A DNA stretch of 64,000 bases from Chiloscyllium plagiosum (taxonomy: Eukaryota), in contig NC_057718.1 of NCBI RefSeq assembly GCF_004010195.1, positions 103,729,963 to 103,793,962 on the forward strand. Direction: 5' to 3'. The translations under genes and the position numbers were made by a program. The notes beneath the pieces are model-generated. The model saw only the letters and a list, made by a program, of their open reading frames with translations, was not told the DNA's origin and did no database searches. Positions 817 to 62,720 of this stretch are shown in pieces (position 1 is the first letter of the stretch; each line of letters starts with the position of its first letter).

Positions 817-852
817 AATCGACGTTTCGGGCATAAGCCCTTCTTCAGGAAT
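817..852 (-). ncRNA. Minimal hammerhead ribozyme motif (PLE family A)
   Basis: Reverse complement reads AUUC-CUGAAGA-A-GGGC-UUAU-GCCC-GAAAC-GUC-GAUU: intact core, 4-bp stem II, palindromic ACGU in place of stem III. Confidence 0.75.
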
Positions 853-933
853 GAGGAAAGTTTGTCCAGCAGGCTAAGATAAAAGGTAGGGAGGAGGGAC
901 TTGGGGGAGGGGAGTCGAAAATGTGATAGGTGG

Positions 934-1838
934 AGCTGGTCATTCAAAGTTAGTACTTGGTGAAATGAGAATCAAATGCATAACATGGTATATGAATTTC
1001 ATTGTCAGTGTAATGCTAGAAATATCAGCCACATATCCTAAAGGCTGGCAGATCTTATCAAATAGCATGTCCATTTGTTTGTTGGTCATTCAAAGCTGGT
1101 CATTCAAAGTTAGTACTTGGTGAAATGAGAATCAAATGCATAACATGGTATATGAATTTCATTGTCAGTGTAATGCTAGAAATATCAGCCACATATCCTA
1201 AAGGCTGGCAGATCTTATCAAATAGCATGTCCATTTGTTTGTTGGTCATTCAAAGCTGGTCATTCAAAGTTAGTACTTGGTGAAATGAGAATCAAATGCA
1301 TAACATGGTATATGAATTTCATTGTCAGTGTAATGCTAGAAATATCAGCCACATATCCTAAAGGCTGGCAGATCTTATCAAATAGCATGTCCATTTGTTT
1401 GTTGGTCATTCAAAGCTGGTCATTCAAAGTTAGTACTTGGTGAAATGAGAATCAAATGCATAACATGGTATATGAATTTCATTGTCAGTGTAATGCTAGA
1501 AATATCAGCCACATATCCTAAAGGCTGGCAGATCTTATCAAATAGCATGTCCATTTGTTTGTTGGTCATTCAAAGCTGGTCATTCAAAGTTAGTACTTGG
1601 TGAAATGAGAATCAAATGCATAACATGGTATATGAATTTCATTGTCAGTGTAATGCTAGAAATATCAGCCACATATCCTAAAGGCTGGCAGATCTTATCA
1701 AATAGCATGTCCATTTGTTTGTTGGTCATTCAAAGCTGGTCATTCAAAGTTAGTACTTGGTGAAATGAGAATCAAATGCATAACATGGTATATGAATTTC
1801 ATTGTCAGTGTAATGCTAGAAATATCAGCCACATATCC
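934..1838. repeat. Perfect tandem repeat, 160-bp unit, ~5.7 copies
   Basis: 'cattcaaagttagtacttgg' recurs at 941, 1101, 1261, 1421, 1581 and 1741. No differences between copies were seen by eye. Confidence 0.97.
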
Positions 1839-2744
1839 GGCGGCGCCGATACAGTCATCGATGTAGCGGAGGAAAAGGTGGGGGGTGGGGCCAGTGTAGT
1901 TGCGGAAGATGGACCTGTCCAAATGTCTTTTAGATGTTGTACTTGTACCCACAATCACCACTTCCTCTGGCAGTTCATTCCACACACAAACCACCCTTTG
2001 TTTTATAACATCGTCCCTTAGGTGTGTTTTAAATCTTTCCCCTCTCACCTTAAACCTGTGCCCTCTAGTTTTGGACACTTCCACCCTTGGGGAGAAGACC
2101 TTGGCTATTCATCTTAACTATAGCCCTCATAATTTTCTAAACCTTTATAATAGAGTCATAGAGATGTACACCATGGAAACAGACCCTTCAGTCCAACCCG
2201 TCCATTCTGACCAGATATCCCAACCCGATCTAGACCCACTTGCCAGCACCCGGCCCATAACCCTCCAAACCCTTCCTATTCATATACCCATCCAGATGCC
2301 TCTTAGCCTCCTGTGGTCCAGAGGTAAATAGCCCCAGCCTATCCAGCTTCTCTTTCTGACAATGTGCACACTAGTGTTAATACAGATAGAGCAATTTGAT
2401 TGGAAGCCTAATGGTCATCAATTCATCGATGTAGTTCGGGTGAAAGGCCACATAGTGGGAACTTGATTGAAAACGATCAGAGGTCATTACAGATCTTTTC
2501 TTCAGGGGATGATACGCCAAGATGTTAAGTCTTTTTCCTATGGATCTCACAGTGAGGCAAGATTGATGGGGGTTGGAATTGGAGGCAAGGATAGGGGGTG
2601 TGGCTCCCAGAGGCCAATCCCTTGCTCCACCCCCGCATGGGCTCAATTACCCTGTGGGTTGCTCTGGCTTTCCTCAGTCTCCTATCACTTGGCAGGGAAC
2701 TGGGCCAAGGGCAGTTCAAAACCATTCAATGGCCATTATTATAG

Positions 2745-3052
2745 AATCCCTGCAGTGTGGAAGCAAGCCATTTGGCCCATCAGTTCACACTGACCCTCTG
2801 AAGAGCATCCCACATACAGATCCACCCCACCCCCCCATTACCCTAGCCCCGTAAACCTGCATTTCCCATGGCCAATCCACCTAGCCTATACATCTTTAAA
2901 CTGTGGGAGAAAACTGCAGGACCTTGAGGAAACCCAACAGAGACAGGACAGAATGTGCAAACTTCACAAAGACAGTTATCCAAGGGTAGAATTGAACCTG
3001 GGTCCCTGGTGCAGTGAGGCAGCAGTGCTAACCACTGAGCCACCATGCCGCC
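2745..3052 (-). mobile_element. HE1-type V-SINE
   Basis: tRNA-like head (ggcggcatggtggctcagtggttagcactgctgcctcac), central V-domain-like core and HER1-like tail. Confidence 0.88.
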
Positions 3053-3994
3053 CTGTTAATTGACCATTTGAGCACCATAATTGATGAAAAGTCAAGAAGG
3101 TCACCCATAGACTTTCTCTCTCCCCGCACTTAATTGATGAGGTGGTGGGATGGGGTTGAACATCTCTCGGAGTCAATGAGCCCAATTAATTGCACTTCTC
3201 ATTTCTTCCTCCCCACCTCCATTGAGGGCCGTAGAGGATCTATTTGAAATAGCATTTTACCTTGTTCAATGAATGAACACAGAGTTCTAATGTTACTTTT
3301 GAGTTCAGCTTTGGCAATGTGATGTCAATGTTCCTTGCAATGTTGTGTTGCATAAATATTAAAGCAAGGAGGTAGCTCAGAGAGATTGAGAAGGAAAGCC
3401 CCATCATTGGAGTGTTAAAAGGACTCAACTCCCTTCTTTGGACAGGGCAGGACTGGGCTGCAGTCCACAAACTCTCAGGACGTTTACTGTGTTCTCAGAC
3501 CGTGTTTGAGATTCATGCAGGAAGAGAAACAAAGCGATCCCCTCCACTGCACTCCACTCACCACACTCAGTTTCTCTCTTTGATGTCCTGCATTTCCTCT
3601 CAAATTTCCTAATGGACATTTCAAGTTTCCTGACTGAATGATGTGAATTCCAGGTTTACATGCAGTCATTCCACTGCTCACAAAAAAATGCCTTTGTTGT
3701 TGGTTTAATGTTTTCCTCCAATTTTATCCCTTTTTAATGTCTCCTTTCATGAAAGTGCAGATTGTTGCAAAGTCTTAAGGTCACAATCCCAACTGCTCTG
3801 TGGTGGCGGATATCTCTCTGTTAGCATCAATACTGTAGACTTGTCGGTCATTGTGGATGATAGAGTGAGTCACTCCCTCAGTTCAATCTGATCCTCCTCA
3901 CAAACACATGTTATTCCAATCGGGATCTTGGACTGTAACCAAGAGCAGGAACATTGGCTGAAGTTTCCTTTCCTGGTTAGGAAGTGAAAGGTGG

Positions 3995-6901: not shown

Positions 6902-7004
6902 CCAACACTATATCACATAAGTATGGGTTAATCTTCATTAAATTTGAAAAACAGAATAGCCACAGAGTCTGCTGAGTTGATAAGACTTTATGTATCTCAC
7001 TTAT

Positions 7005-10984: not shown

Positions 10985-12909
10985 AAACATAAACACAATT
11001 AGAGATTGAACAAACCTGCGCTCGTCAAGCGGCAACGAGAGTGAGAGACGTGAGGCTTTCTCGAGTTCCTTTACATAGACACACGTATCTAATGGAATCT
11101 GAATGGCTACATATTTATGAAAGATAAATTCATGGAAGATTGGCTTATTCTGTTACTTTGGACAATTATATAAACGGTGAGCTAACAGGAGAGTTGCGAA
11201 AATGTGAAGACAGTCACCAATGCAGAACTGAAGTGAGAAATGGCTTGTTTTTGTTTTGCGCTGTTGTGAAGCGGTTTCTTATATAAAACATTGGATGCAA
11301 ATAAAAATGATGGCTTTCCATCTGTGTCGCTATGGGAAGTTTTCTGCATGATCAGTCAGCTTAGGCTGATCCATAGGAGAGCTTCTGAACAGAGGTTGGG
11401 GCGTGATCTATTAGACTGGGACTGATAATCAAACTAATGGTGGGTCTTCATCACTGTATAAGGGCAGAGACTGGGGAGCAAGCTGCCTCTGACCTATTTC
11501 ACATGACAACTGATGGATGGAGCCAGAGACATGTGAAGAGCTACTGTGGGATAAAATGACTGAACTGGATCACAATCATTAGTTGGGGGGGGGGGGGGGT
11601 GGGGGAAGGAAAGGTTATCTCATTATTGATAGTTTCACAAATGAAGGGAATATCATAATTTATTTATGGATTGGTCACTTGAACTTTTTGGAATTTACAT
11701 TCAAACTGTCAGTAAGATTCTTTGCTGTTGAATAGTACAGCATTAGTTGGATTCTTAGCACTGTTTTGCAAAGTGAAGAATATAGTTTGGAATTTTCATT
11801 GAGGATATCAAACTACTACAATACTCAAGTCGCTTGACAGATGGGTTTTCTGGTATTCTTGAAGAATTAAGGCAATTAATTGCAACAACATTATAAATAG
11901 CTGTTGGGCCTTTGGAATCTGAAATCAACACGTTTAGCATCATTCACCCTCATTAGCCTTGAAAGTAATTTTTATCAGCTGTAGAGCGTGCTCACACTCG
12001 TTCAACATGAGTCAAATCATCTTTCACATGATTAGAATAAAAGGCATTCTCGAAACAGGCAAGAGAGAATCAAATGAAACATGTATTTTCCATTTCTGAG
12101 CTCTGATTAAAGGGGGAGAAAAACTTAAAAATTCAAATCAACATAAAAACTGTTTTACTTTAAAAACCTAAAGGAGGGATTCAGTGAATTCCATTATTTT
12201 CACCCACTGTCAGTTTGAATAATTTAGGAAGGCAAACTAAATTATAGATAAAGTGTACTGTTGGAAGGAAAAGTTCATGCATAGCCTGAGGCTATAACCA
12301 TCCCCTAATGACATCTATAGTCAGAGGAAAGAACATGTTTGGTTAAGGATAATTTGCAAAGGGCTGTGACAACACTTCTTAAAGCCACACCGCTTTGAAA
12401 TGATGGAAAGAAAATGATGGAATGCAAGGACTGAAAAGTAATTTGGAAGAAAATGAATTGAGTGCAATATTGTTATTCAATCTTAAGTTTAACCCAAGGA
12501 ATGAGTTGATATCCCTAATCTTGTTCAAACAATAGTTCTAGTATCCACCACCTCAGCTGAATATATCTTTCATCCCTCTATAATGAAGCTTCAAAAGAAA
12601 CTAAACAGCGTAAATGTCTTTGTGTTTCTATTGATCAGTCCATCCAACCTGTACTCAAGTACATTCAACTTAGTTGAACTTTCAAAAGTTTGGCATTGTT
12701 AAATACTTGGTCAGAAATTAAAATTAGATACGTTTTAGGAGCATCTTTGTTTGAACAGGGAGTGGAGCTATCATCAGGGTGAAGTCACACCAGGACTTTA
12801 AAACAATGCGAAGCAGCCAAATCTGTGTACTTGAGGTGCTGAAACAATACAATTAGCATTAGTATTCCTGGTGGGCATAATTCACGAATTAAACTAGGTT
12901 AATTCAAAC

Positions 12910-13202
12910 TAGGTAAGGGAGTTTTGAGAAGATATGTAGATCAGGTTAAGGTTCTGGATTGTAAGATTGCTCGCTGAGCTGGAATGTTCGATTTGGACCC
13001 TTTCTACAATCCTCTCAGGAGAAGAACAGGAAATGGCATCACCAACACAGGAAATGACATCATCAACCCAAGGAAACCTGAACACATAAATAAAAAACAG
13101 GACATAACACCAGTCCCTTCACCAGAGGCTCACTGATGATGTCACCTAGTATCATGACGAAACGTCTGAAAATGAACCTTCCAGCTCAGTGAGCAAACAT
13201 AC
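12910..13202 (+). mobile_element. Short PLE-derived insertion (family D) with inverted 5' segment
   Basis: Inverted match ttgctcgctgagctggaatgttc (12967-12989) / gaaccttccagctcagtgagcaa (13174-13196). Direct repeat attcaaac at 12902-12909 and 13203-13210. Contains a hammerhead core. Confidence 0.65.
13130..13169 (+). ncRNA. Minimal hammerhead ribozyme motif (family D)
   Basis: UCA-CUGAUGA-U-GUCA-(loop)-UGAC-GAAAC-GUC-UGA: stem I UCA/UGA, stem II GUCA/UGAC, GUC cleavage triplet. Confidence 0.75.
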
Positions 13203-15149
13203 ATTCAAACGAGATAAATTAAACTCCAGACATTATTATTGGCACTTATAGAGTCATGGAGACGATACCACAGGAAAATGCCATTTGGCCCATCAAGTCT
13301 GTATTTGTCAAAAAAACACCTAACTATTCAAAACCCTTCTTTAAAAATGTGGGGGGCAAAATGGCAATGTGCTTACTTTGTAATTTTCCATTGATTTAAA
13401 TTTGATCAGGGTGGTGTCAGTGAGATGCCCCCCAGGATTAAGGATGGTAGCAAATTAGCAATAAGGTGTTTTCACGTTTATAACCAGGTCATTACGTTCA
13501 ATAAGTTAGTAAAAAGAGGGATGGGGTTAATTGGACAGCCATTTCAAAGAGTTGGCAGGGTACAATGGACAGAATGGTGTCCATCTGTACTGCATAGTTC
13601 TGTGGATGGAATTTAATTGAGCCCACTGGAGGTGACAGGGGGTATGAAGCCATGTGAATCAGCACTGGACTTCCAGTGTCTGAAAAACAGTCTTCAGTGA
13701 AATTAGGGATAGGTAGGGAGTGACAGAAGGATCCCATTAGCTGATGTGAGATATGAATTGTGTTCATCACAGAGCTGCTTAACACCATTTCTCTCCAAGC
13801 CCATTGGAATTCAGTGGTTAGGGAGCTCTTGTACACTATGCTGCACCCCTGCCCCAACCCCCGCCACTCAAAAACATAATCTCAGATCCACTCCATTCTC
13901 CCTCAAACCTTTTGGAAAGTTCAATCATATTATGATTGCTGTTACCACAGCTGTTCGACATGACACAATTAATTACATCTATCTTGTGTCACTGTGCTAG
14001 GCTGAGTTAGCCTGTTCTCTAGTCAGCTATGTTGCTGTTCTCAAAACTACCCTAAAAACATTCTTTGAGTTCCTCATCTGGGCTATTTTTGCCTACCAGA
14101 CTTTTCCAGTTTTAAACAGATTGAAATCTGCTTTGATTATTGCCAAATCTTTGAGCTCTTGTTATTTCTTTCTCTATGTTTCACTATACCATGTGGTTAC
14201 TGTTTAGAGACTTATATGCCACTCCCACATGTAACTTGTTGCACTTATCATTTCCCATCTCCACCCAAACTACATCCACATCTGAGTTTCCTGAACTTAG
14301 GTCAGGCCTTTCTATTGTATAATTATTGTAAGTCCTAGCAGTGTCACCCCTAGATCTTTACCTAATTTATTGACCTTCCTAAATGTCCAGGATCCTTCAG
14401 GTCTTTGGTCTTAATCAGTGTCATCTAGCAACAGCAGCATGTCTCAGCGACAGCCACCAAATTTTGTTTGTTTCCATCGCCAACTGGGAAGAAGCTGCAG
14501 CTTGAGCTTTTCTGCAACAGTGGAAATCTCTGACTGACAATCCTCCTCTAGCACAGAGACAGCTACCTCAGTAGGTACTCCATTTATATTTGATTTGGGT
14601 GTGCATCTGGTGAGTGAATCATTGACGGGTTCTCAGCTGGTGCAGGAAGAAATGCCCAAAGTCATTGACATTCAGAGGACTGCCAGCGACCTGATCAATG
14701 CTCTGCAGAAGAAGCGCCGCTGAAATTGGCAGGAAGTGAGCAAGAATGCAAGTCATATCAACTTGGATAGTATGAACATGTTAGCATCTACCTAGCCACA
14801 TTGTGACGATGTTCTGGAAGTCAAACTTGTTCCTGTAAGGTATGAGTAAAGGAGGTCTTTGTTCAACTCTCAAAGTAAAAGTCTCCAACTCCACAAAACT
14901 GCACACCCCAGAACATGCTGCAGTGAGCTAATCAGCATCTTGGCTTTCGAAGGGTTTGCTACTACAAATTAAACTTGTCCATCCTTTAACTAAAGCCCAG
15001 TCTCTATTGAGTCGGCAGCAGCAGCTACTGCACCAGATTATAATGACATCACTTCCTTCATACCTTGCATCTCTTCACAACTGAAAAGACAGTTTGGAAC
15101 AGGTGATATGTGCCAAACAGAGTGCTCCTAAGTAATCAACCTTGAAATA

Positions 15150-15290
15150 GAGTTCTGTGGAAGAATCACTGGACCAGAAATGTTAACTCTGATTTCTTCA
15201 CAGATGCTGCCAGACCTGCTGAACTTTTCCAGCAACTTATGTTTTTGTTTCTGATTTGTAGCATCCGCAGTTCTTTCAGTTTTTGTTTAG
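15150..15290 (+). mobile_element. PLE terminal-repeat fragment (family C), degenerate
   Basis: 'gttctgtggaag...gaaatgttaactctg...cacagatgctgccagacctgctgaac'. Related copies at 17855-17953 (-), 32274-32400, 35085-35245, 45710-45795 (-) and 55750-55850. Confidence 0.65.
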
Positions 15291-15809
15291 AAATGTGCAT
15301 AAGTAGCTGATTTGAATTCACAATTTACTATGGGAACATATAAACCCAGTTGTTTTAAAAAATACTGGAATAATGGTAAAAGTAAAGTTGGACCATACAG
15401 AGACTCATTGGAAAGGTACGACTGGTGGTGCTTTAACCTGAAGGTCACCATTCTTCAGGTGAGGATAAAGGTTGAGAAGCAGGATCTTCATGGTGACCTC
15501 AACTTTACCTTTAATACTAGAGTATAGATTATTGGAAAGCAACATTGGAACCCACTGACATTTTCTCAGAATATGGATGATCACAATCTTTCCATGGGAT
15601 TAAGAATGAACAATAATTCTGATACAATAAACAGAGGCACAAACAAAGCAATTCTTATAACACAATTAGATGGTCTATCAAACCTCCATGGCCAACACTA
15701 CTCAAGATGGGTCTTGAACCTGGAAGTCTGACCCCAGGGGTAGGTACGCTACCAACGCACCACAAGAACACTAATATGTTATATTCCATCGACTTTGTAT
15801 GAGACAAAC

Positions 15810-17440
15810 AAGGAATAAGATAAACCATCAGCCCCTCCAGCCAGTTCTGCTATTCAATGTGATCATGGCTGATCTGTGGCCTAACTCCATAAACCTGCCG
15901 TTGGCCCATATCCCATAACGGCTTTACTTAACAAAAGTTTATCTATCTTGGATTTAAAGGTAACAACTGATCCAGCATCCACTGCCATTTGTGGAAGAGA
16001 GTTCCAAACCTCTCCCACCCTTCGTGTTGAGAATTGCTTCCTAACATCTCTCCTGAACAGAGACAATGCCCCTGGTTCGAGGAACCTCAATTAATTGAAA
16101 TAGTTTATCTTTATCTCTCTTGTCTTTTCATGTTAATACCTTGAAGACTTCAATCCGATTACTCCTTAATCTTCTAAATGCTAGAGGAAATTTGTAATAT
16201 TCTCTTCTCATAACTTAACCCCTGAAGTCCAGGTCTCATTCTTGTAAACCTACATTGTGCTGCCTCCAAGGTCATTACCACCTTCCGAAGGTGTAGTGCC
16301 CAGATCTGCTCGCTATATTCCAAGTGGTGTTTAACTGAATTTTGTATAACTGCAGTATAACTCCTGCATTGCTATCTTTCAGTCCTCTAGACCTGAGGGC
16401 TGGTATTCCACTAACTGTCTTGATTATTTCCTGCACCTCTTCAAGGCATTTTAAAGATCTATGCACCTGAGTCCCCAAGTCTATTTAACTCCACACCATT
16501 TAGAAAGTACCCTCATTTATCCTTTTTCACACTCACACTTGTTTCCATTCAACTTCATCCCTTGGTCATTGAGAATCTATCTCCCTCAGCCTTAAAGATA
16601 TTTAAAGATTTTGCATCCACTGACTTTTAGAGTCAGAGATTCATGGAGCTGTGCAGCACAGAAACAGACCCTTCGGATCAACTCATCCATGCTGACCAGA
16701 TATCCTAAAATAATCTAGTCCCATTTGCCAGCATTTGTCCCATATCCCTCTAAACTCTTCCTATTCATCTACCCATCCAGATGCCTTTTAAGTGCTGTTA
16801 TTGTACCAGCCTCCACCACTTCCTCTGACAGCTCATTCTATTAACACAACACCCTCTGCGTGAAAACGTTGCCCCTTAGGTCCTTTTTAAATCTTCCGCC
16901 TCTCATCATAAACCTATGCCCTCAAGTTTTGGACGTTCCCACCCCTGGAAGAAGACTTTGTCCATTTACCCTACCCATGCCCCTCATGACTTTATAAACC
17001 TCTAAGGTTACCCCTCAGCCGCTGACACTCCAGGGAAAATAGCCCCAGTCTATTCAACCTCTCCCTATAGCTCAAATCCTCCAACTCTGGCAACATCCTT
17101 GTAAATCTTTTCTGAATCCTTTTGGGGAAAGGAATTCCAAAGACTCACAAGCCTCTGAGAAAGAAAACAAACTATGAGCTCCAGTTCTAGGTTCTCCAAC
17201 AAGAGGGACATCCTTTCAATACCCACTCAATCAAGTCTCCTCAGGAGCTTATGTGTCTCAATTAAGAAACCTCTGACACTTCTAAGATCCAGAGGATACT
17301 GGTCTAGCCTGTCTAGTCTTTCTGCATAAGTCAATCTGCTCATTCCAGGTATTAGTTCGGTAAGTGTTCTCTGACTGGCTTCCCACACATTACCATCCTT
17401 CAGTAAGTATGTTTACAATGTGCTGTGCATCTCACCAATG
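15810..17440 (-). mobile_element. Cluster of nested CR1 LINE 3' fragments
   Basis: Antisense ORF2 C-terminal peptides (FSTRRVGEVWNSLPQMAVDAGS). A younger HER1-type copy at ~16630-17122 sits inside an older one. Confidence 0.85.
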
Positions 17441-17854
17441 TGAGATTGTATCTAGAGTACAACTGAAATGTTCTTAAGATTGAGTTAACAATCTTTCGCA
17501 TCCACTATACCTCTGGAGCTGATAAAACTTGAAAAACTTCAGGGACAGAGGTAAGGACACTACCATTGTGCCACAAGACCCTGAAAGCCCAACAGTATGG
17601 ATCACAACACATGGATTAGAAACCCTACTGACTGAGCTAGCTTGGGCTAACACAACATGTCATTGTTTGCAACTCAATTACACGGGGAATATTCTTACAT
17701 GGAGTATTTGTCTATATTGTGCAAGGTTGGAAGATGGTGTATATTAAGGTTGAGCTTTTTATGGAACAAAATAAATTGATAAAGTTCCTATTTTAAGAAA
17801 TTCAGAGTTTACCTAGATGCAGAGCACAGCACAGCTGATCAGAATTATATTACA

Positions 17855-17953
17855 ACAAAAACAGAAGTTGCTGGAAAAGCTCAGTGGATCTGGCAGCATC
17901 TGTGGAGATAAATCGGAGTTAACGTTTTGGGTATACTGACCCTTCCTCAGAAC
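17855..17953 (-). mobile_element. PLE terminal repeat (family C) with hammerhead-like core
   Basis: Reverse complement of 17918-17953: GUU-CUGAGGA-A-GGGU-cagtat-ACCC-(A)AAAC-GUU-AAC. The G of GAAA is lost, consistent with CpG decay. Confidence 0.7.
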
Positions 17954-17980
17954 CACAGATGATGCAAATGCTCCACTTAC

Positions 17981-18081
17981 TCAGCTGTAGATTTATCACC
18001 CGAACATCATTACTCTCGGTTTGATATTCTGGCTTTTGCACGTTCAAAAGCTTTGGAAATCCGAGATATTTCTGCATCATC
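17981..18081 (-). CDS. Candidate coding exon (MMQKYLGFPKLLNVQKPEYQTESNDVRVINLQL), unidentified
   Basis: AG...GTAAGT boundaries in non-repeat sequence. Frame is open and compatible with 18660-18782. Acceptor is weak and no protein was recognised. Confidence 0.2.
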
Positions 18082-18659
18082 CTGCCCCAAATGAGCTGTG
18101 TGCATTCACCAATGTGTTAATACAATAGAATGAACCATGCTTTTTGCTAGATGGTTTATTAATGATACCATTATCACATCACTGAAATATTTTCAATGAT
18201 AAGTGGTAAAATCTCAAGGCTCCTGCATACTGTCATATTAAGTCACATTCAACAATTCAAATCCGATGTAAATCTGACAGCTTGCTTGAATTAAGGATTG
18301 AATTCAGCAAGTCTGAAACAAAAGGTGTATTCACCTGAAATCACAGGTAATGAGAGTCTGTGTTACTTCAATTGTCTACACGGAGCAGTTGTGGAGCAAC
18401 ATCCTTTACCTGAGAATGTTTAAACATAGTTGATCCCTCATTGACGAACTTCAATATCAAGTGTTAGTAGCTTGTTTTTATATCTTTCCAAGACATGACA
18501 GAGAAAGTAGTAGGGACAATTATATGCAGAATCTCAAATATTGAAAATAGTCAACTTAATGCTACCTCACTGCAGATGTTTGAAAGTGATCAGGAACTGT
18601 GTGGTTAAAGCCAGTTAACAGGGCTGAACACAGGGATGTGTTTGGATTCAAAGGCTTAC

Positions 18660-18782: not shown

Positions 18783-19899
18783 CTGGGAAGGAAGGAAATT
18801 TACTGCAGCAGAAATAATTAAAAGGCTAAGAATGAATTGCAATGCTGATAAGTACTTGGCAGCTGGATGATGCTCATTTTTGCACCTCACATTTGACTCA
18901 CTCAGTCACAGTTCATCGCATAAACTTTGTTGTCTCTGAATGTGAACACTGTGAATTCAAGGCCTACTCTAGACAGTTGGGAACAAAATGTCTTGGTTGA
19001 TCCAATCCTCTGCTGTATGGAGTGATTGCTGCACTTACAGTGATGTTGTCTCTTGGAATCCTACATTACCACAGTTCTGCATGCCAAACACACCTCACTG
19101 GCTGTCACACGTGTGTTTTGGGCATCCCGAGGTCACAGCAATTACTATGTAAATGCAAGTCGACACCTCCTTTATTCAAGCACCTTGCCAAATACTCCGA
19201 CAGTTAGGAATGACTGAGTGAAATGGTGGGTGTATCAAAGGCAGCAGAAAATTGAGATGTGGGTGACACAGAACAAGACACATCTGTCAGCAATGAGGCA
19301 TGGGCAAAACTGATCAACCTCAGCTGAGGAATTAAAATACAGATGGCCCAACTCTTTAATCAGACAGCGATTTTCTCTCTGTGAAATTCTGTATAAGATG
19401 ATGGCTCTGAAAGAGTTAAAGTTCATGCTGTCTTAAGCTCCACCCAATCTGGATGGAGCGTCATCTGGTAGTCTTTGTAAAGATGTCTAATTGGTCATTG
19501 TAACTTGTACCTTTTACTGCCATGTAATAAACTAAGTTTATGTAATAAACTTGTTGCTAAGATCAGCACTTATCCTTGTTAAGACTCAGTTGTGAACTCT
19601 CCTTTACATTTCCCTATTGGATAGACCCTTAACTCTGCATAGAAAGGAAAACTGGTGAGTGATGCTGTACCTCAGTCATAAACCCCTTAAATTTCTGCTG
19701 TAACCTGCAAAGTGAATGCAGTCAGGAAATCAAAACTGGCATCAGTCAATGGACATCAGTTTTACTGCTACAAATAGAATTTGTATTAGAATGACGAGGC
19801 ATATCTAGAATTTGCTTTTGTCCTATCTGTGAGCTAGTCATGAGAATTTGAGAATAAAGCTGGAACAAGCCAAGTGGGAGCACCTTAAGATTCTGGTTC

Positions 19900-20465
19900 A
19901 GGCAGGCAGTGGGCTGGCGCACATATGGAATATTGTGCACAGATTTGGGCCCTTTATCTTGGGAAGGATGCATGGCCTTGGAACGTGTTCAGGAGGTTCA
20001 CAAAAATGGTCCAGGAATGAAAAGCCTAACATATGAGGAATGGTTCAGGACTCTGGGTTTATACTCAATGGAGTTTAGAAGGATGAGGGAGGGATCAACT
20101 GAAACATATAAAATGCTGAATGGCCTGGACAGAGTGGATGTTGGGAAGATGTCTCCATTGGGAGGAGAGACTAGGACCCGAGGGCACAGCCTCAGAGGAA
20201 AGGGAAGACCTTTTAGAACGGAGATAAGGAGAAACTTCTTCAGCCAGAGAGTGGGGAATCTATGGAATTCATTGCCACAGAAGGCTGTGGAGGCCAGGTC
20301 ACTGAGTATATTTAAGACAGAGATAGATAGGTTCTTGAATATCAAGGGTTGCAGGGAGAAAATGGGAGAATGGGGTTGAGAAACTTATAAGCCATGATTG
20401 AATGGCAGAGGAGACTGGATGGGCTGAATGGTCTAATTTCTGCTCCTCTGTCTTTATGGTTTTAT
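19900..20465 (+). mobile_element. CR1 LINE 3' fragment
   Basis: ORF 19909-20379 'LGLYSMEFRRMR...RTRGHSL...RRNFFSQRVGNLWNSLPQKAVEA' is the CR1 ORF2 C-terminus. Confidence 0.92.
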
Positions 20466-21179
20466 CACTGATTGTAGGGAAATTCCAAGCCAGGCTAAAA
20501 CAAAATGTTCAAAGCTTTTCAGCCTTCACTGTAAACAAAAAGTTGACATAAACTACAGCTCTAGATATGGGAAAATCTTTACAAGATTGCAACAAAGGTG
20601 TCTGAGTCCTGCTACATTATGTGAACACCCCAGGGAACAGTGGAATCAATTACTGTGAGTAATTCTATAATTCAAGGGCAATCCAATAAACTACGACCAT
20701 GGGACACTCCAATTCATGACCAGTCTCTTTGCTTTTTCCAATAAAGTGACATCCCATTGGATTATGGAGTACCCAATGACACTGTCTGCTTTGACTCCTA
20801 GAAGAATCCAACAAGGTTCCTTGTGGCAAGAGCATAGTATAGCAACAGGAATACATGAAAGCATTTTGGAGTGTATAAAAACATTCGTGCGAGGGTTAAG
20901 CCTCTGGCCCTGTTTGGAGCAGTTGTCTCAATGTGAAGGGAATTTTACCAGGCAGTAGCTTGGGACTCCATGCCCAGGGTTTATAATTCACAATCAAAAC
21001 TTAGATTCAGAACACACAAAGCAACTTGATATCAGCTCTATTACTCTGATGTCCTTAAGAAAGGTAGAGTTTGTCTGGCTTGCATGCAAAACAATACTTT
21101 TTGCCGTATTTCAGCAAAATTGACAATAATAAATCAAATCAAATCAAAAAAATCAAAAACTCATCAGTTCTCTGGGAGA

Positions 21180-30632: not shown

Positions 30633-30720
30633 GCTGAAAATGTGTTGCTGGAAAAGCGCAGCAGGTCAGGCAGCATCCAGGGAACAGGAGAATCGACGTT
30701 TCGGGCATGAGCCCTTCTTC
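30633..30720 (-). mobile_element. Solo PLE family-A terminal fragment with 15-bp TSD
   Basis: TSD ctgtttaaaataata at 30618-30632 and 30721-30735. The 5' end falls inside the CUGAAGA box. Confidence 0.9.
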
Positions 30721-37660: not shown

Positions 37661-37721
37661 CTCTCTCCCCACCCCCACCCTCCTCTAGCTTATCTCTCCA
37701 CGCTTCAGGCTCTCTGCCTTT

Positions 37722-37757
37722 ATTCCTGATGAAGGGCTTTTGCCCGAAACGTCGATT
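37722..37757 (+). ncRNA. Minimal hammerhead ribozyme motif (family A)
   Basis: AUUC-CUGAUGA-A-GGGC-UUUU-GCCC-GAAAC-GUC-GAUU. Confidence 0.8.
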
Positions 37758-39183: not shown

Positions 39184-39385
39184 GTTATAGTCCAACAGGT
39201 TTAATTGGAAGCACACTAGCTTTTGGAGCAATGCTCCTTCATCAGGTGATTGTCAACCACCTGACGAAGGAGTGTCGCTCTGAAAGCTAGTGTGCTTCCA
39301 ATTAAACCTGTTGGACTATAACCTGGTGTTGTGTGATTTTTAACTTTGTACACCCCAGCCCAACACCGGCATCTCCAAATCATGA
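39184..39385. mobile_element. Palindromic PLE family-B insertion with 13-bp TSD
   Basis: TSD ctaagttaatctg at 39171-39183 and 39386-39398. ~70-bp arms inverted about 39253. Confidence 0.88.
39258..39292 (+). ncRNA. Minimal hammerhead ribozyme motif (family B)
   Basis: CAC-CUGACGA-A-GGAGU-guc-GCUCU-GAAAG-CUA-GUG: stem I CAC/GUG, palindromic AGCU, CUA triplet. Confidence 0.65.
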
Positions 39386-39957
39386 CTAAGTTAATCTGTT
39401 TTTGTTGATGCATATTGAGGAATAAGTGTTGGTGAGGACACTGGGGATCACTGTCTTTGAAAGTGGGATTTTAACTCCTATGTCAGAAAACAGAAGGGAT
39501 TTTGGTTTAATGCCAGAACCAAGAGGCAGCACTTCCATCAGGGTGGCACTCCCTCAGTACTGTCTGCCCAGATTTCCCTGCTCAATTCCCTGGAGATGAA
39601 CTTTGAAATTAGCACTTCTCTCCAGCAACATGAATGTGGTGTTACCACCTGAACTGGGGCGGACAAAACACCATCGATCAAACATACGGATAAGCTGCTG
39701 ATTTGGATCAGTGATGCATAAACTTGGCAAGCAGTAGTAGCCTTTCATGTACAGCACATAGCTGATACTTTCTTTCATATTAAAACCCATTCAATCAAAC
39801 AAACCTGTTCTTGAATCTTCAACTGAAGCTCTGGGTGATTAAAGAGCTCAAAGCTCTACACATTGAACTCCCTGATAAAAAAGGCCATACTTACTGACCC
39901 CAAGGTTCAGTTATAAGCTTCCACTGTCATCCAGAAAGTTTGTCACTATCTGAATAA

Positions 39958-44964: not shown

Positions 44965-46135
44965 AAATGTAGGAACCATGAGCATGAGGAGACCATTTGG
45001 CCCATTGAGACGGCACCACTGTTTAATATGATCATGGATGATCTTGTCTTTCAGCTCTATTTTCCCACATGCTCCTCCTATATCTCAATTCCCTAGGAGA
45101 CCAAAAATCATACTTCCTGAACATAAGTGTGTTCAATGTTAGAAACTCCATACTCCTCTAGAGTAGAGAATTCCAAAAATTCATGACCCTCGAGGCCAGA
45201 CTGTTCAGAAGAGATGTTAGGAAGAACTTCTACACACAAAGGGTGGGAGAGATTTGGAATTCTCTTCCACAAATGGCAGTGGATGCTGGATCAGTTGTTA
45301 GTTTCAAATGTAAGATAGTTTTTTTTTTTGCTCAAACGATTATCTTAAGGCACATGGGCCAAAGGCAGGTAGTTAGGACACGGATCAGCCAGGATCTCAT
45401 TGAATGGCAGAACAGGCTTGAGGGGCTGAATGGCCTCCTCCTGTTCCTACATCCCTTTGTGTGAACCAACCTTCCTTCACCTTACTCCAAAATGATGAGT
45501 CCCTTATCCTGAAATTGTATCCCCCATGTTCTAAATTCCCCAGCCAGGGGAGAAAATGTCTTAGTGTTGACCCTGTCCAGCCCATTCATTATTCTGAATG
45601 CTTGAATGAGATTGCCACTTATTCTGCTAAAACCCCAAGAATATTGACCTGATTTACTCAGCCTCTCATCAGAGGAGCACAGTCTCATTCCAGGAACCAA
45701 TCTAGTGAGAATGCTGGAAAATCCCACTGGATTTGGCAGCATCTGTGGAGGGAAAGTAAAACCAACATTTCGAATCTAGTGACCCCCTTCAGAACAATCT
45801 AGTGAGACTTCAGTTTACTGTGTCCAATGCAAGTGAATCCTTTCTGAAATACAGAGACCAAAACAGCTCATGGTATTCCACAAGTTGTCTTACTAAGGCC
45901 CTGTACAATTTTAGCAAGTTACTTCTATTCTTGTATTCCCAGTCTTTTGTAATAAAGCCCATCATGCTCGTTGCTTTCCTAATTACTTGCTACACCTGCA
46001 TACTAATCCTTTGTGTTCCTTATCGGAACACATCCCACTCTCTCTCAACAACAAGTTTCATGCCTCTAAAAAAAGTTCTGATTTTCTATTTGTGTGACCA
46101 ATTCGACACTATCTGCCACTCATGGCTCTCTCTGA
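44965..46135 (-). mobile_element. Old CR1 fragment with nested plus-strand CR1 3' piece (~45196-45452) and PLE family-C piece (~45710-45795)
   Basis: Antisense CR1 peptides on both sides; 'FRRDVRKNFYTQRVGEIWNSLPQ' on the plus strand. Confidence 0.8.
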
Positions 46136-46510
46136 GTCTCTTTGCAGTCTCTCTCTCAGTGTGTACTATAAGTGAAGCTTAGACACAAACACTCGCATTG
46201 CTGACATCAATTCTCACACGGGAACGTAAGTGTAACAATCAAGGCTGAAATTGCAGTGCCTGCCTTAGGCAGTGTTATCCGTCATGGCTGCAGTGTTGTG
46301 TAAAAAATACCAAAAATGTGCCTCATTTTTCAGCTCAGGTCTTATAGCAAGAAGAGGAGGGGAGTTCGCCCGACTATCTGTCAATCAGCATCCCATTGTT
46401 GTTTGTGGGATCTTGCTGTGTGCAAATTGGCTCTGTATTTCCTACATTACAACTGTGACCCCACCTCAAAAAGTACTCCATTGGGTTTGCAACACTTTGG
46501 GAAGTTCAGT

Positions 46511-47350
46511 GTCATAGAGTCATAGCGATGTACAGCACGGAAACAGACCCTTCAGTCCAACTCGTCCATGCCGACCAGATATCCCAACCCAACCTAGTCC
46601 CACCTGCCAGCACCTCTTCTCTATCCTATCTATTTGCAACTCTACTTTCAAGGAACTATGAACCTGTACTCCAAGGTTTCTATATTCAGCAACACTCCCT
46701 AGGACCTTACCATTAAACGCATAAGTCCTTCTAAGATTTGCTTTCCCAAAATGCAGCATCTCGCATTTATCTAAATTAAACTCCATTTGTCACTTCTCAG
46801 CCCATTTGGCCCATCTGGTCAAGATCCTGTTGTAATCTGAGGTAACCCTCTTCGCTGTCCACTACACCTCCAATTTTGGTGTCATCTGCAAACTTACTAA
46901 CTATACCTCTTACGCTCACACTCAAATCATTTACATAAATGATGAAAAGTAGTGGACCCAGCACTGATCCTTGTGGCACTCCACTGGTCACGGGCCTCCA
47001 GTCTGAAAACAATCCTCCAGCACCATCCTCTGTCTTCTACCTTTGAGCCAGTTCTGTATCCAAATGGCTAGTTCTTCCTGTATTCCATGAGCTCCAACCT
47101 TACTAACCAGTCTCCCATGGGGAACCTTGTTGAATGCCTTACTGAAGTCCATATAGATCATGTCCATCACTTTGCCCTCATCAATCTTCTTTGTTACTTC
47201 TTCAAAAAACTCAATTAAGTTTGTAAGACATGATTTCCCATGCACAAAACCATGTTGACTATCTCTAATCAGTCCTTGCCTTTCCAAATACATGTACATC
47301 TATCCCTCAGGATTCCCTCCAACAACTTGCCCACCACTGACATCAGGCTC
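46511..47350 (-). mobile_element. CR1/HER1 LINE RT fragment with internal deletion joining RT to the 3' UTR
   Basis: 'SQHGFVHGKSCLTNLIEFFEEV', 'SGVPQGSVLGPLLF', 'KFADDTK'. The sequence jumps to the 3' UTR at ~46615. Confidence 0.93.
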
Positions 47351-49794: not shown

Positions 49795-52700
49795 TTGTAA
49801 AAGCAAAAGAAAAAGTGTACAATGTTTTGAAAGATAGTGGGAAGTCAGAGGATTGGGAAACCATTTAAGACCAGCTGAGGATAAGTAAATAGCAATGGAG
49901 GGATGGGTAGAAAATGAAATGTGATGAGTAAGCTGGTTTTAATATTAAACAAGATTGCAAGAGCTTTCTTTAGGTATATAAAAAGATAAGAGAGAGGCAA
50001 AAGTGGATATTGGACTGTTGGAAAACGAGGCTGGGGCAGTAGTAATGGGGATTAAAGAAATGGCAGAGGAACTGAGTAGGTACTTTGCATCAGTTTTCAC
50101 AGCAGAAGACATCAACAGCATACCAGAGCTTCAACAAATGGTGGAGGTGAGTGTAACGGTCATCACTAAGGAGAAGGTGCTGGGGAAGCTGAAAGGTCTG
50201 AAGGTGGATAAATCACCAAGATCAGACGGACTATATTCCAGAGTTCTAAAAGAGATAGCTGAGGAGATTGTAGAGACATTGGCAGTGATCTTTCATGAAT
50301 CACTAGAGTCAGGCAGGATCCTAGAGGATTAGAAAATGGTGATTGGAACACCTCTGTTTAAAAGTGAAGGGAGCAGAGGTAGAAAGCTACAGGCGAGAGC
50401 TAGTCTGATCTTAGCCATTGATAAGATTTTACAGTCCATTATTGAAGATGAGATTGCAGAGCACTTAAGCTCGGGTGGAGTAAACACAGCTTTGTCAAGG
50501 GGAGGCCCTGCCTGACAAATTTGTTAGAATTTGTTAAGTGTGTACAAGAACATTTTCTGATTCGGTATGTGGATGTACCTACTAGAGAAGGTGCAAAACT
50601 TGACCTACTCTTGGAAAATAAGACAGGGCAGGTGACTGAGGTGTCAATGGGGGAGCACTTTGGGGCCAGCGACCATAATTCCATTAGATTTAAAATAGTG
50701 ATGGAAAAGGATAGACCAGATCTAAAAGTTGAAGTTCTAAATTGGAGAAAGGCCAATTTTGATGGTATTAGGCAAGAACTTTCAAGATCTGATTGGGGGC
50801 AGATGTTCACAGGTAAGGGATGGCTGGAAAATGGGAAGCCTTCAGAAATGAGATAACAAGAATCCAGAGAATCCTGTTAGGATGAAAGGAAAGGCTGGTA
50901 GATATAGGGAATGCTGGATGACTAAAGGAAGGCCCCAAGGGATCCTTCCATATCCGTCACAAATTCACCTGCACCTCCACACACGTCATTTACTGCATCC
51001 GCTGTACCCGATGTGGCCTCCTATACATTGGGGAGACAGGCCGCCAACTTGCAGAATGTTTCAGAGAACACCTCTGGGACACCTGCACCAACCAACCCAA
51101 CCACCCCGTGGCTGAACATTTTAACTCCCCCTCCCACTCTGCCAAGGACATGCAGGTTCTTGGCCTCCTCCATCGCCAGACCATGGCAACAAGACGCCTG
51201 GAGGAAGAGCACCTCATCTTCCGCCTAGGAACTCTCCAACCACAAGGGATGAATGCAGATTTCTCCAGCTTCCTCATTTCCCCTCCCCCCACCTTATCTC
51301 AGTCCCAACCCTCGGACTCAGCACCGCCTTCTTGACCTGCAATCTTCTTCCTGACCTCTCCGCCCCACCCCCTCTCCGGCCTATCACCCTCACCTTAACC
51401 TCCTTCCACCTATCGCATTCCCAACGCCCCTCCCCCAAGTCCCTCCTCCCTACCTTTTATCTTAGCCTGCTTGGCACACCCTCCTCATTCCTGAAGAAGA
51501 GCTTATACCCGAAACGTCGATTCTCCTGCTCCTTAGATGCTGCCTGACCTGCTGCGCTTTTCCAGCAACACATTTTTCAGCTCTGATCTCCAGCATCTGC
51601 AGTCCTCACTTTCTCCTAAAGAAATTGAGGGTTTGGTTAAGAAAAAGAAGGAAGCATACGTCAGGTATAGATAGGATAGATTGAGTGAATCCTTAGAAGA
51701 GTACAAAGGCCGTAAGAGTATACTTAAGAGGGAAATCAGGAGAGCAAAAAGGGGATATGAGATAGCTTTGGCAAATAGAATTAAGGAGAATCCAAAGAGT
51801 GTTTACAAGTACATTAAGGACAAAAGGGTAACTAGGGAGGGAATAGGGCCCCTCAAAGATCAGCAAGGCGGCCTTTGTGTGGAGCCGCAGAAAATGGGGG
51901 TGACACTAAATGAATATTTTGCATCAGTATTTACTGTGGAAAAGGATATGGAAGATATAGATGTAGGGAAATAGATGGTGACAACTTGCAAAACGTCTAT
52001 ATTACAGAGGAGGAAGTGCTGGATGTCTTGAAACACATAAAGGTGGATAAATCCCCAGGACCTGGTCAGGTGTACCCTAGAACTCTGTGGGAAGCTAGAG
52101 AAGTGATTGTTGGGCCTCTTGCTGAGATATTTGTATCATCGATAGTCGCAGGTGAGGTGCCAGAAGACGGGAGGTTGGCTAATGTGGTGCCACTGTTTAA
52201 GAAGGGTGGTAAGGACAAGTCAGGGAACTATAGACTGGTGAGTCTGACCTCGTTGTTGGCAAGTAGTTGGAGGGAATCCTGAGGGACAGGATGTACATGT
52301 ATTTGGAAAGGCAAGGACTGATTAGGGATAGTCAATATGGCTTTGTGCGTAGGAAATCATGTCTCACAAACTTGATTGAGTATTTTGAAGAAGTAATAAA
52401 GAGGATTGATGAGGGCAGAGCAGTAGATGTGATCCAAATGGACTTCAGTAAGGCGTTCGACATGGTTCCACATGGGAGACTGATTAGCGAGGTTAGATCA
52501 CATGGAACACAGGGAGAACTAGCCATTTGGATACAGAACTGGCTCAAAGGTAGAAGACAGAGGGTGGTGGTGGAGGGTTGTTTTTCAGACTGGAGGCCTG
52601 TGACCAGTGGAGCGATCGGTGCTGGGTCCTCTACTTCTTGTCATTTACATAAATGACTTGGATGCGAGCGTAAGAGGTACAGTTAGTAAGTTTGCAGATG

Positions 52701-54262
52701 ACACCAAAATTTGAGGTGTAGTGGACAGCGAAGAGGATTACCTCAGATTACAACAGGATCTGGACCAGATGGACCAATGGGCTGAGAAGTGGCAGATGGA
52801 GTTTAATTTAGATAAATGCGTGGTGCTGCATTTTGGGAAAGCAAATCTTAGCAGGACTTATACCCTTAATGGTAAGGTCCTAGGGAGTGTTGCTGAACAA
52901 AGAGACCTTGGAGTGCAGGTTCACAGCTCCTTGAAAGTGGAGTCGCAGATGGATAGGATAGTGAAGAAGTGTTTGGTATGCTTTCCTTTATTCATCAGAG
53001 TATTGAGAACAGGAGTCGGGAGGTCATGTTGCGGCTTTACAGGACATTGGTTAGCTATAGAGGTTTCACAAAATCATGAAGGGCATGGATAGGGTAAATA
53101 GACAAAGTCTTTTCCCTGGGGTCAGGGTGTCCAGAACTAGGGGCCTAGGTTTAGGGTGAGAGGAGAACAATATAAAAGAGACCTAAGGGGCAACCTTTTC
53201 ACATAGAGGGTGGTACGTGTATGGAATGAGCTGCCAGAGGAAGTGGTGGAGGCTGGTACAATTGCAACATTTAAGAGGCATTTGGATGGGTATATGAATA
53301 GGAAGGGTTTGGAGGGATATGGGCCGGGTGCTGGCAGGTGGGACTAGATTGGGTCAGCATGAATGGGTTGGACCGAAGGGTCTGTTTCCACGCTGTCGGG
53401 CAGGACGTGTTGAGGAAACAAGGAGCTGCAGAAGGATTTGTAAAAGCTAGGAGAGTGGGAGAAGAAGGGACAGTGCAATACAATGGGGGAAAGTGTGAGG
53501 CGATGCACTTTGGTCGGAAGAATTAGAGACGTAGGCAATTACTCTAAGGGGAAAGGCTTGGGAAATCTGAAGTGCAAAGGAAATTAGAGGTCTCTTAAGG
53601 TTAACATGTAGGTTTAGTTGGCAGTTAGGAAGGCAAATGCAATGTTAGCATTCATTTCAAGAGGGTTAGAATACAAGAGCAGAGATGTACTGCTGAGACT
53701 GCATAAGGCACATTTGAAATATTTTAAGCTGCTTTGGCCCTATGTCTAAGGAAGGATATGTTAGTGTTGAAGGGCATCCAGAGGAGATTTACAAGAATGA
53801 TCCCAGGGATGAAGGGCTTGTCATGTGAGGAGCAATTGAGGACTCTGGGCCTGTACTCGATGGAGTTTAGAAGGATAAGGGGGGAGGGATCCCATTGAAA
53901 CTTACAGAATACTGAGAGGCCTGGATAGAGTGGGAGCGGAGAATATGTTTCCACTGGTAGAAGAGACTAGGACCTGAGGGCACAGCCTCAGAGTGAAGAG
54001 ACAACCCTTTAGAATTGAGATGAGGAGGAATTTCTTCAGCCGGAGGGTGGAGAATCTGTGGGACTCATTACCATAAAGAGCTGTGCAGGCCAAGACATTG
54101 AGTATATTTAACACAGAGATAGATAGGCTATTGATTAGTGAGGGGATTGAGGGTTACAGGGAGAAGGCAGGAGAATGGGGTTGAGAAACATACCAACCAT
54201 GATGGAATGGTGGAGCAGACTCGATGGGCCGAATGATCTAATACTGTTCCTCTATCTTATGG
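49795..54262 (+). mobile_element. Nested CR1 LINEs: older copy (49795-50530, 53400-54262) hosting a younger HER1-type copy (~50523-53395)
   Basis: Older copy: 'LKVDKSPRSDG..RVLKE'. Younger copy: endonuclease end 'PTREGAKLDLLL...GASDH', tether, RT and 3' UTR. Many stops and frameshifts. Confidence 0.92.
50928..51615 (+). mobile_element. 5'-truncated PLE: GIY-YIG endonuclease domain plus family-A terminal repeat
   Basis: Encodes FTCTSTHVIYCIRCTRCGLLYIGETGR...FREH and AEHFN...RRLEEEHLIFRLGTLQPQGMN. TSD ctaaag at 50922-50927 and 51616-51621. Hammerhead boxes at 51491-51518 with a damaged stem II. Confidence 0.92.
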
Positions 54263-61277: not shown

Positions 61278-61812
61278 TCACGGATTTCTTACAATGCAGA
61301 TTTAGGCCATTCAGCCCATCATGTCTACACCGGCTCTTAGAATGAGCATTGTAACTTAGTGCCATTCTCTACTGCCTTTACCCCGATGATGATGGACGAT
61401 TATTTAATTAAAAGCAGTGCCCGTTGAGGAATGCACCAATTGAACCTGCCTTCACCACCATTTCAAGGCAGTATATTCCAGGTCGTAACTACGTATTGTT
61501 AAAAAGTTAAGTTGTGTGTCACATTTGAGATTTTTGCAATTCACTTTAAATCTATGCCCTCTTCTTTGTCTTACAAATGGAAACAGTTACTCCTTATCTA
61601 CTGTGCCCAGAAGCCCCCCACCCCGATTTTGAAATCTTTTATTAAATTTCCTCTTAACCCTCTCCTTTTCATGGAGAAGAGTCCCAATCTCTCTGATCTA
61701 CTGTCAAACTGAAGCTTCTCAATGATGGAACCCCTCTACCGAACACTCTAACGTGTTCATATCATTCCATAGTGTGGAGCCTGGAACTACACACAATGCT
61801 GTAACTGAGATC
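61278..61812 (-). mobile_element. Old CR1 3' fragment
   Basis: 'aggccattcagcccatc' tail and decayed ORF2 end. Confidence 0.65.
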
Positions 61813-61999
61813 AACATTGTGCATGCATTTTAATGACCAGAATTGACAAATGGACAGAAATAACTAACACCTGAAAGACACTAACAATTCTAATATTTAA
61901 AAGAATCTTTGACATTTTTTTGCAAGACATTTATAATTGCTTTTTCTTCTCTTGTAAGACTAGATGCCAGGATCTTTCCAAATTGAGGTCCTGTGTTTC

Positions 62000-62636
62000 A
62001 ACAATTGACACAAAGCTGGATGGGAGGGTGAGCTGTGAGGACAATGCAGAGGTGTTGCAGTGGACAGGCTGCATGTGTGGGAAAACGCATGGCAGATGCA
62101 GTTTGATGTGGATAACTGTTAGGTTATCCATTTTGGGAGTAAAAATAAGAATCAGATTATTATTTGAATGCCTGTAAACTGACAGAGGGGAATATTCAAT
62201 GAGACCTGGGTGTCTTCATGCACCAGTCGCTAAAGTAAGTGTGCGGGTACAGCAGGCGATAAAGAAGGTGAATTATATGTTAGTCTTCATAACAAGAGGA
62301 TTCAAGTATAGGGACAAGGATGTCTTGCTGTAATTATACAGGGAATTGTTGAGGACACACTCAGAGTTTTGTGAGCAGTTTTGGTCCCCTTATATGAGGA
62401 AGGATGTTCTTGCTGAGGAGGGAGTGTAGCGAAGGTTTACCAGACTGAGTCCTGGGATGGGAGGGCTGACTTATGAGAAGACATTGAATCGGTTTGGATT
62501 ATATTTACTAGAAGTTAGGAGAATGAGAGGGAGATCTCATAGAAACCTGTGAAATTTGTACAGGACTAAACAGGGTAAATACAGGAAGGGTATTCCCAAT
62601 GGTGGGGTAGCCCAAAATTGGACATCATTGTTGAAG
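62000..62636 (+). mobile_element. Old CR1 RT C-terminal fragment
   Basis: 'gacacaaagctgg...gacctgggtgtc...gcagttttggtccccttat...gaatgagaggg'. Confidence 0.85.
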
Positions 62637-62637
62637 G

Positions 62638-62720
62638 TGATGAAGGAGCAGTGCTCTGAAAGCTAGTGCTTCCAATTAAACCTGTTGGACTATAACCTGG
62701 TGTTGTGTGATTTTTAATTT
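62638..62720 (+). mobile_element. Solo PLE family-B terminal fragment
   Basis: tgatgaaggagcagtgctctgaaagctagtgcttccaattaaacctgttggactataacctggtg. Matches 39262-39345. Confidence 0.85.

Follow-up and report, generated by a model that had tools for sequence, protein, structure and literature searches.

The window analysed here is a 64,000-nucleotide (nt) stretch of the Chiloscyllium plagiosum genome (assembly GCF_004010195.1, contig NC_057718.1, positions 103,729,963 to 103,793,962, forward strand), which carries minimal hammerhead ribozyme motifs within four families of terminal repeat, A to D, of the kind found in Penelope-like elements (PLEs). BLAST, nhmmer and anchor searches together count 24 terminal-repeat copies (10 of A, 7 of C, 6 of B and 1 of D), 15 on the plus strand and 9 on the minus strand, which bears out the roughly 20 proposed in the original prediction, a reading of this DNA from its letters. 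Stems as well as core are kept in four of the 24, and these are listed here together with the family C example of the original prediction, positions being those of the window.

817–852, minus strand: family A minimal hammerhead, UUC CUGAAGA A GGGC-UUAU-GCCC GAAA CG UC GA; complete core, 4-base-pair (bp) stem II, ACGU palindrome, GUC triplet, 2-bp stem I
37722–37757, plus strand: family A minimal hammerhead, UUC CUGAUGA A GGGC-UUUU-GCCC GAAA CG UC GA; complete, in the terminal repeat (pLTR) of the element at 36353–37851
39258–39292, plus strand: family B minimal hammerhead, CAC CUGACGA A GGAGU-GUC-GCUCU GAAA GC UA GUG; core complete, with an AGCU palindrome, a CUA triplet and a stem I of 3 bp
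13130–13169, plus strand: family D minimal hammerhead, UCA CUGAUGA U GUCA-..-UGAC GAAA CG UC UGA; complete core, ACGU palindrome, GUC triplet, 3-bp stem I
17918–17953, minus strand: family C motif with G12>A (broken), ACGU palindrome, GUU triplet, 4-bp stem I; its 3′ junction is also present in organism B, a second organism about 5% diverged

The positions given earlier for the two A motifs, the B motif and the D motif were confirmed letter for letter. The family C example, which had been presented as a minimal hammerhead, reads CCC-AAAACGUU and has the catalytic G12 replaced by A, so that it fails the descriptor given below; the whole core is intact in none of the seven C copies. The core CUGANGA...GAAA.NUH, which has one more base ahead of stem II, is kept in six of the 24 copies, from families A, B and D (817, 13130, 22079, 37722, 39258 and 51487); the family A copy at 51487 combines a complete core with a broken stem II, and in the B motif at 39258 stem II is closed by G.U, not G-C.

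A strict descriptor of the minimal type I hammerhead (CUGANGA, stem II of at least 4 bp, GAAA, a complementary middle dinucleotide, UH and stem I of at least 2 bp), composed with the motifs already known, matches four sites on both strands, namely 817(−), 13130(+), 37722(+) and 39258(+). In 300 dinucleotide shuffles, the same descriptor gave a mean of 0.007 matches per shuffle and a maximum of 1, showing that the motifs are not products of chance. When the palindrome and stem I were left out of the descriptor, five sites were found versus 0.11 expected from shuffles, and stem I is 2–3 bp long in all five and the palindrome present in four. A scan with hammerhead models had been proposed as a check on the motifs, and here the outcome was negative: the Rfam hammerhead families gave no covariance-model match in the window at E ≤ 1, nor any at E ≤ 10 in short stretches around 817, 13130 and 37722 (39258 was not scanned singly).

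The motifs have type I topology, with a stem I of 2–4 bp formed within each family; in family A, it consists of two contiguous pairs, followed by U.U and then A-U. The 15.2–16.2 position is palindromic without a loop 3, reading ACGU in A, C and D and AGCU in five of five B copies. The palindromic stem III of the original prediction is therefore present, but two of its four letters, A15.1 and U16.1, are set by the core, leaving only the middle two free. Likewise, the predicted co-variation of stem I among four families survives in part: stem I is paired in each family, but true covariation is found between A and C only, which are sister families sharing the 3′ part of the repeat, as judged from their alignment. 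An nhmmer search with a C query finds A copies with E-values down to 7e-8, and a block downstream of the motif is common to both, whereas B and D have no homology to A/C outside the core. In the joint A/C alignment (17 rows), the stem I closing pair is C-G in 8 rows and U-A in 6, the outer stem II pair is C-G in 6 and U-A in 6, and 73.5% of cells are paired versus 19–44% in slid controls. This covariation amounts to a single event for each pair, between two families, so that independent events are few.

Reading frames related to PLE proteins accompany two of the families, and the features that bear on the link between the motifs and PLEs are as follows.

36353–37851, plus strand: family A PLE, 5′-truncated and frameshifted, with a reverse transcriptase (RT) region at 36357–37296, a 365-N gap and the pLTR, between target duplications of 13–15 bp at 36338 and 37852
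50931–51606, plus strand: family A 3′ end, with a GIY-YIG endonuclease region at 50931–51308 (64% to protein P0008) followed by the pLTR at 51487
760–934, minus strand: family A 3′ end and pLTR that holds the 817 motif, 90% identical to 51405–51576
39956–40329, minus strand: family B 3′ end, with C-terminal GIY-YIG codons, an AC-rich untranslated region and a pLTR with G12>A
12990–13133, plus strand: open frame of 48 codons that ends at TGA TGA within the D core and gave no homologue in protein searches
12957–12994, minus strand: inverted partial copy of the 3′ part of the D repeat, without the motif, 84% identical over 38 nt to 13170–13206

The RT region at 36357–37296 matches RVT_1 of Pfam (E 5e-8) and is 97% identical to protein P0003. 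Its closest relatives are 89–97% identical proteins named from Chiloscyllium punctatum (the closest named at 97%), and more distant relatives carry both RVT_1 and GIY-YIG. In this longest PLE copy, the endonuclease region is hidden by the assembly gap of 365 N at 37296–37660. The family B copy at 40043, on the minus strand, follows 41 codons (40204–40326) that are 76–85% identical to the ends of GIY-YIG proteins (P0123–P0126). Relatives of A and relatives of B are 31% identical to each other over 318 amino acids. On the basis of these protein similarities, a PLE reading frame is attached to A (RT and GIY-YIG) and to B (endonuclease tail). Family C is linked to PLEs by homology to the repeat of A only, and family D by its motif and layout, with the inverted partial copy at its 5′ side; protein searches with the D frame came back empty, so the membership of D rests on motif and layout. 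The 48-codon D frame may resemble a PLE C-terminus. A tandem repeat of a 21-bp unit (2.4 copies, 13026–13076) lies within the D sequence upstream of the motif. The terminal repeats of C and D likely belong to PLE families as well. The proposal of four PLE lineages thus holds for A and B, whereas C is a sister of A without a reading frame and D is not tied to a PLE protein.

Both nearest relatives, P0008 for A and P0124 for B, carry a CX2-5CxxC linker, which is given for Neptune and Nematis PLEs (PMC8557442); in A and B the linker itself lies outside the window. As described for Neptune-type PLEs by Craig et al. (2021, PMC8557442), the elements here have an RT followed by GIY-YIG, the linker in the relatives of A and B, strong 5′ truncation, an inverted 5′ partial copy and a hammerhead in the pLTR. 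However, the window holds no full-length copy, and the linker is shared with Nematis, so that the elements may belong to either Neptune or Nematis.

Motifs of this kind are already known. Cervera and De la Pena (2014, PMC4209133) reported minimal hammerheads in the pLTRs of metazoan PLEs, present in thousands of mostly solo copies, and inactive as monomers and of low activity as dimers. A single genome can hold several co-varying families there: the coelacanth has 6 and Xenopus 8, “full of covariations”. The window motifs share with those hammerheads the CUGANGA-H core, a G-C pair closing stem II, GAAA, the palindromic 15.2/16.2 without a loop 3 and a short variable stem I, and opposite-strand pairs and mostly solo copies occur in both. 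The differing triplets GUC, CUA and GUU, which had been predicted and are indeed seen in the window, all occur in the alignment of that paper, as does the AGCU palindrome (turtle). Differences lie in the stems: stem II of A, C and D is 4 bp long versus the 7–8 bp given there for Schistosoma, and the stem I of family A, with two contiguous pairs, is unlike that system. The reading of the motifs as PLE-type minimal type I hammerheads whose stem III is palindromic, dense in a shark-type genome, is borne out. The occurrence of several co-varying families within one vertebrate genome, offered as a surprise, was already in print. A new host is the most that the window motifs can claim: supplementary file 2 of PMC4209133 has no shark term, and a literature search on sharks with hammerhead ribozymes or Penelope had nothing on point among the records listed. 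What they add is a shark to the animals with minimal hammerheads in PLE repeats, and clean natural variants for assays.

Several observations count against regarding all of the window copies as inert PLE hammerheads. The Pfam GIY-YIG score for 50925–51332 is under the curated cut-off (16.9 versus 22.6 bits), none of the seven C copies in the window has a reading frame upstream, and the D peptide is without a homologue in protein searches (Atlas matches, all below 0.8, were disregarded). Furthermore, four copies remain complete, and those decayed A copies in which ACGUC-GA survives could, in principle, supply the strand to be cut by an intact same-strand copy. Such decayed copies are at 51487 (plus) and at 25706, 30720 and 49521 (minus), 14–49 kb from the intact same-strand copy, and the two intact A copies themselves lie on opposite strands, 37 kb apart. 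Taking these points into account, we still consider it highly probable that the motifs are minimal type I hammerheads in terminal repeats of PLE families, firmly so for A and B and likely for C and D, and that the window copies are likely inert, decaying insertion products.

Further copies that carry evidence on decay and on insertion are listed here.

22079–22172, plus strand: family A stub whose core is complete and whose palindrome is broken (ACAU), beginning 1 nt upstream of C3 and flanked by a 12-bp target duplication
25587–25796, both orientations: two family A repeats that meet head to head around a centre near 25705, each with a broken core
30634–30720, minus strand: family A stub that lacks C3 and U4 and thus begins at core position G5; 15-bp target duplication
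15150–15265, plus strand: family C copy with a broken core (A6>U, C15.2>U), in an insertion that organism B has as well
45707–45794, minus strand: family C stub with a broken core, beginning 2 nt upstream of C3 and flanked by a 13-bp target duplication
39184–39385, both orientations: family B insertion in which an inverted partial repeat on the minus strand (G12>A) meets the plus copy head to head; the flanking 13-bp target duplication lies at 39171 and 39386
62637–62720, plus strand: family B stub, C3 missing, starting at U4; reads G-UGAUGA

The G10.1-C11.1 pair followed by G12 forms a CpG in the core, and ACGU contains a second one. Methylation-driven neutral decay is expected to fall on CpGs. 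At 11.1–12, 22 copies read CG in 8, TG in 6, CA in 6 and otherwise in 2, so that 12 of the 14 changes are TG or CA, and about half of the changes at this first CpG remove the catalytic G12. These counts leave out the B 63424 row and the last row, which are non-homologous at the core; three C rows align poorly, and the row of B 62638 is misaligned at C3. The middle of ACGU in the 17 A and C copies reads CG in 7, TG in 4, CA in 3 and otherwise in 3 (7 of 10 changes being TG or CA), and the AGCU of B, which is not a CpG, is unaltered in five of five copies. Most of the damage to the A, B and C copies thus falls on these one or two CpGs of the core, a pattern that methylation-driven neutral decay would produce. 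From the complementary TG and CA changes at both CpGs (a spread of TG, CA and CG), we infer an intact source core for family C. Through mutation of its core CpGs, each genomic copy would silence itself. Contigs of organism B run into the C copies at 15152 and 17953, indicating that these insertions predate the split.

Exact direct repeats of 12–15 bp surround six of the 23 copies searched (817, 22079, 30720, 37722, 39258 and 45796), compared with about 2% for such matches at random sites. These target duplications, at 747, 22069, 30620, 36338, 39171 and 45700, belong to insertions of A, B and C and are all 12–15 bp long. No target duplication was found for 15 of the 23; two 11-nt long-range matches, at 49521 and 13130, were put down to chance, and beside 49521 there is a 10-nt match that is only suggestive. 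Relative to C3, the three short duplication-bracketed stubs (22079, 30720 and 45796) begin at −1, +2 and −2, and the turning point of the head-to-head pairs precedes it by about 8 nt (B, 39252) and about 4 nt (A, 25705). The 5′ edges of short copies and the inversion centres therefore lie within about 8 nt of C3, and not at the cut site, which is about 28 nt downstream of the stub 5′ edges, indicating that an uncut RNA was copied. The 5′ edge may mark either the start of an RNA or a stall of the enzyme. In vitro results on PAc, the Poseidon element of Anolis, are in agreement: uncut RNA is reported as the main template, and copying begins downstream of the hammerhead (Frangieh et al. 2024, PMC11167929). 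A downstream start on uncut RNA also fits window stubs that hold the whole motif; PAc, however, belongs to another clade, and protein-assisted cleavage is a feature of PAc in that report. Inverted adjacent partial copies occur in B (39184–39385), A (25587–25796) and D (12957–13206), so that 5′ truncation with adjacent inverted partial copies, a feature of PLE insertion, is found here, in the layout given in PMC8557442.

As the literature suggests, the motif of an active donor would function solely as a double hammerhead, with two copies pairing through ACGU or AGCU, possibly aided by the protein of the element. The RT of the element likely copies uncut RNA from 80–130 nt downstream of the motif and would mostly halt early, giving stubs of 85–130 bp, head-to-head pairs and a few longer pieces, each within target duplications of 12–15 bp. 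After insertion, the motif would likely be lost neutrally, and fastest at the two core CpGs.

The short stubs, above all those of C and perhaps D, could alternatively represent a self-standing non-autonomous family, like a short interspersed nuclear element (SINE) or a retrozyme, made from a short RNA whose first nucleotides are the leading edge of the hammerhead and which relies on enzymes borrowed from PLEs. The start of stubs and inversion centres within about 8 nt of C3 is compatible with this, as is the lack of upstream coding sequence in all seven C copies, and C and D are very abundant in two species, with a summed contig depth of about 1e5 versus 20–40 on unique DNA (which is not a copy number). 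In addition, a preprint on animal non-LTR retrozymes (bioRxiv 10.64898/2026.07.22.740005) derives these short non-coding type I hammerhead units from pLTRs and reports them in one chondrichthyan. However, those retrozymes are tandem arrays with a hammerhead per unit, whereas the window copies are solo or head to head, and none of the 12 tandem-repeat (TRF) rows for the window contains tandem units that each have a complete hammerhead. Moreover, in sequence the A and B stubs are one and the same as the ends of coding copies, and 5′ truncation with a preferred stop therefore explains them. A separate non-autonomous family is thus possible but unlikely, and it would refine rather than replace the reading of the copies as truncated PLE insertions.

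One insertion, which ends at the 817 hammerhead, has a composite structure that includes two further features.

934–1838, no strand assigned: 160-bp foreign unit in 5.7 identical copies, inside the 817 insertion
1839–1912, minus strand: PLE RT fragment with a YIDD motif, 85% identical to 36687–36758, at the 5′ end of the composite insertion; target duplication at 1913–1925 and 747–759

The segment 747–1925 (minus) is a single insertion in a remnant of a long interspersed nuclear element (LINE), with the same 13 bp at 1913–1925 and 747–759, and its order is a 74-bp RT scrap, 5.7 copies of the 160-bp unit at 100% identity and 175 bp of the family A 3′ end. The unit is absent elsewhere in the window, is interrupted by stops in every frame and matches nothing in Rfam, and its junction on the strand of the element, CUUUAG/GAUAUG, is splice-junction-like. 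Such a structure could be a fossil of rolling-circle retrocopying, in which the PLE RT would switch to a small circular RNA, go around 5.7 times and switch back. We regard this as quite unlikely. The pLTR part of the insertion has 2 private changes in 87 bp versus two sister copies, and at that rate an equally old stretch of 905 bp should carry about 20 differences, whereas it has none; a later expansion or an assembly artefact of the 160-bp array is more likely, judging from the sequence. Among the records listed in a literature search, nothing was on point for the capture of RNA circles by PLEs. If the rolling-circle reading were true, it would mean that PLE enzymes retrotranspose host RNA circles, and it would back the circular-template model proposed for these hammerheads.

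Predicted folding bears on whether any copy could act today. The stem I closing pair is formed in 1.5–16% of isolated monomers and in at most 0.1% when ±150 nt of context is included (the context fold of 37722 takes in 85 assembly-gap positions and is unreliable), and stem II of the D copy at 13130 is formed in 3%. The intact B copy at 39258 is predicted to be sequestered in a hairpin of about 70 bp with its own inverted twin (−114 kcal/mol, z −19). This near-perfect 70-bp RNA hairpin of the head-to-head B pair (39183–39323) is a possible double-stranded RNA if transcribed. A mir-875 Rfam match at 39224–39282 was rejected as spurious (28 bits versus a gathering threshold of 84), as it corresponds to the inverted B pair. 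A pairing table for double hammerheads indicates that B is incompatible with A, C and D in helix III and that D has no stem I against A or C, while the C front half and the A back half alone pair, by 4 bp (three of them G.U). The differences in stem I and palindrome thus predict that the families would be unable to cut each other in mixed dimers, with C front and A back as a possible exception.

The original prediction also raised the possibility that intact copies in an intron cut host pre-mRNA; acting alone or with a partner in a transcribed intron, they would be regulators or a burden on the host gene, and this would be of far greater significance, if true. That four of 24 copies pass the descriptor, that decayed same-strand A copies retain the cut-strand half and that family-like reads are found in polyA RNA (4574 reads placed on 12800–18300) all speak for it. 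However, no host gene was found: none of 330 stop-to-stop frames of at least 60 amino acids has a host protein domain in Pfam (the matches are RT, GIY-YIG and two chance matches below cut-off), and a crude splice-site screen gave no convincing exon, although short exons or a long intron could escape it. The reads come from run X21, a polyA single-cell library of which about 2% was read and which is ill-suited to show cut ends, and the interval tested holds D and two C copies and no A or B copy. All 4574 reads fall on repeat bins, with none on unique DNA and no read-end pile-up, a weak negative at this shallow depth. Thus, no host exon was identified and no read was placed on unique DNA in the 5.5 kb tested. 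Further, the copies lie on both strands (15 plus and 9 minus), stem I is predicted to form in at most 16% of monomers and the B copy to be sequestered, the activity published in PMC4209133 is nil for the monomer and low for the dimer, and the anole RNA sequencing described in PMC11167929 shows no ends at the cut site. Cutting of host pre-mRNA by these copies is accordingly highly improbable.

Finally, although the stems have few pairs, the motifs were known when the descriptor was drawn up and no Rfam hammerhead model matched, the idea that the motifs are chance look-alikes of the hammerhead core has virtually no probability left, given the excess over shuffles under both descriptors and the occurrence of all motifs at the same place in repeat families, two of which are tied to PLE frames; it is refuted for A and B, and the single-copy D keeps a small residual chance.

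Apart from the PLE copies, the window contains many decayed LINE-type RT fragments with RVT_1 matches (19858–21525, 40467–41570, 46500–47300, 51600–53350 and others), which we presume to be CR1-like. A SINE-like repeat is present in several copies (2843, 7069, 10861, 31878, 44118 and 48414), and about 28% of the window is repeated within itself.

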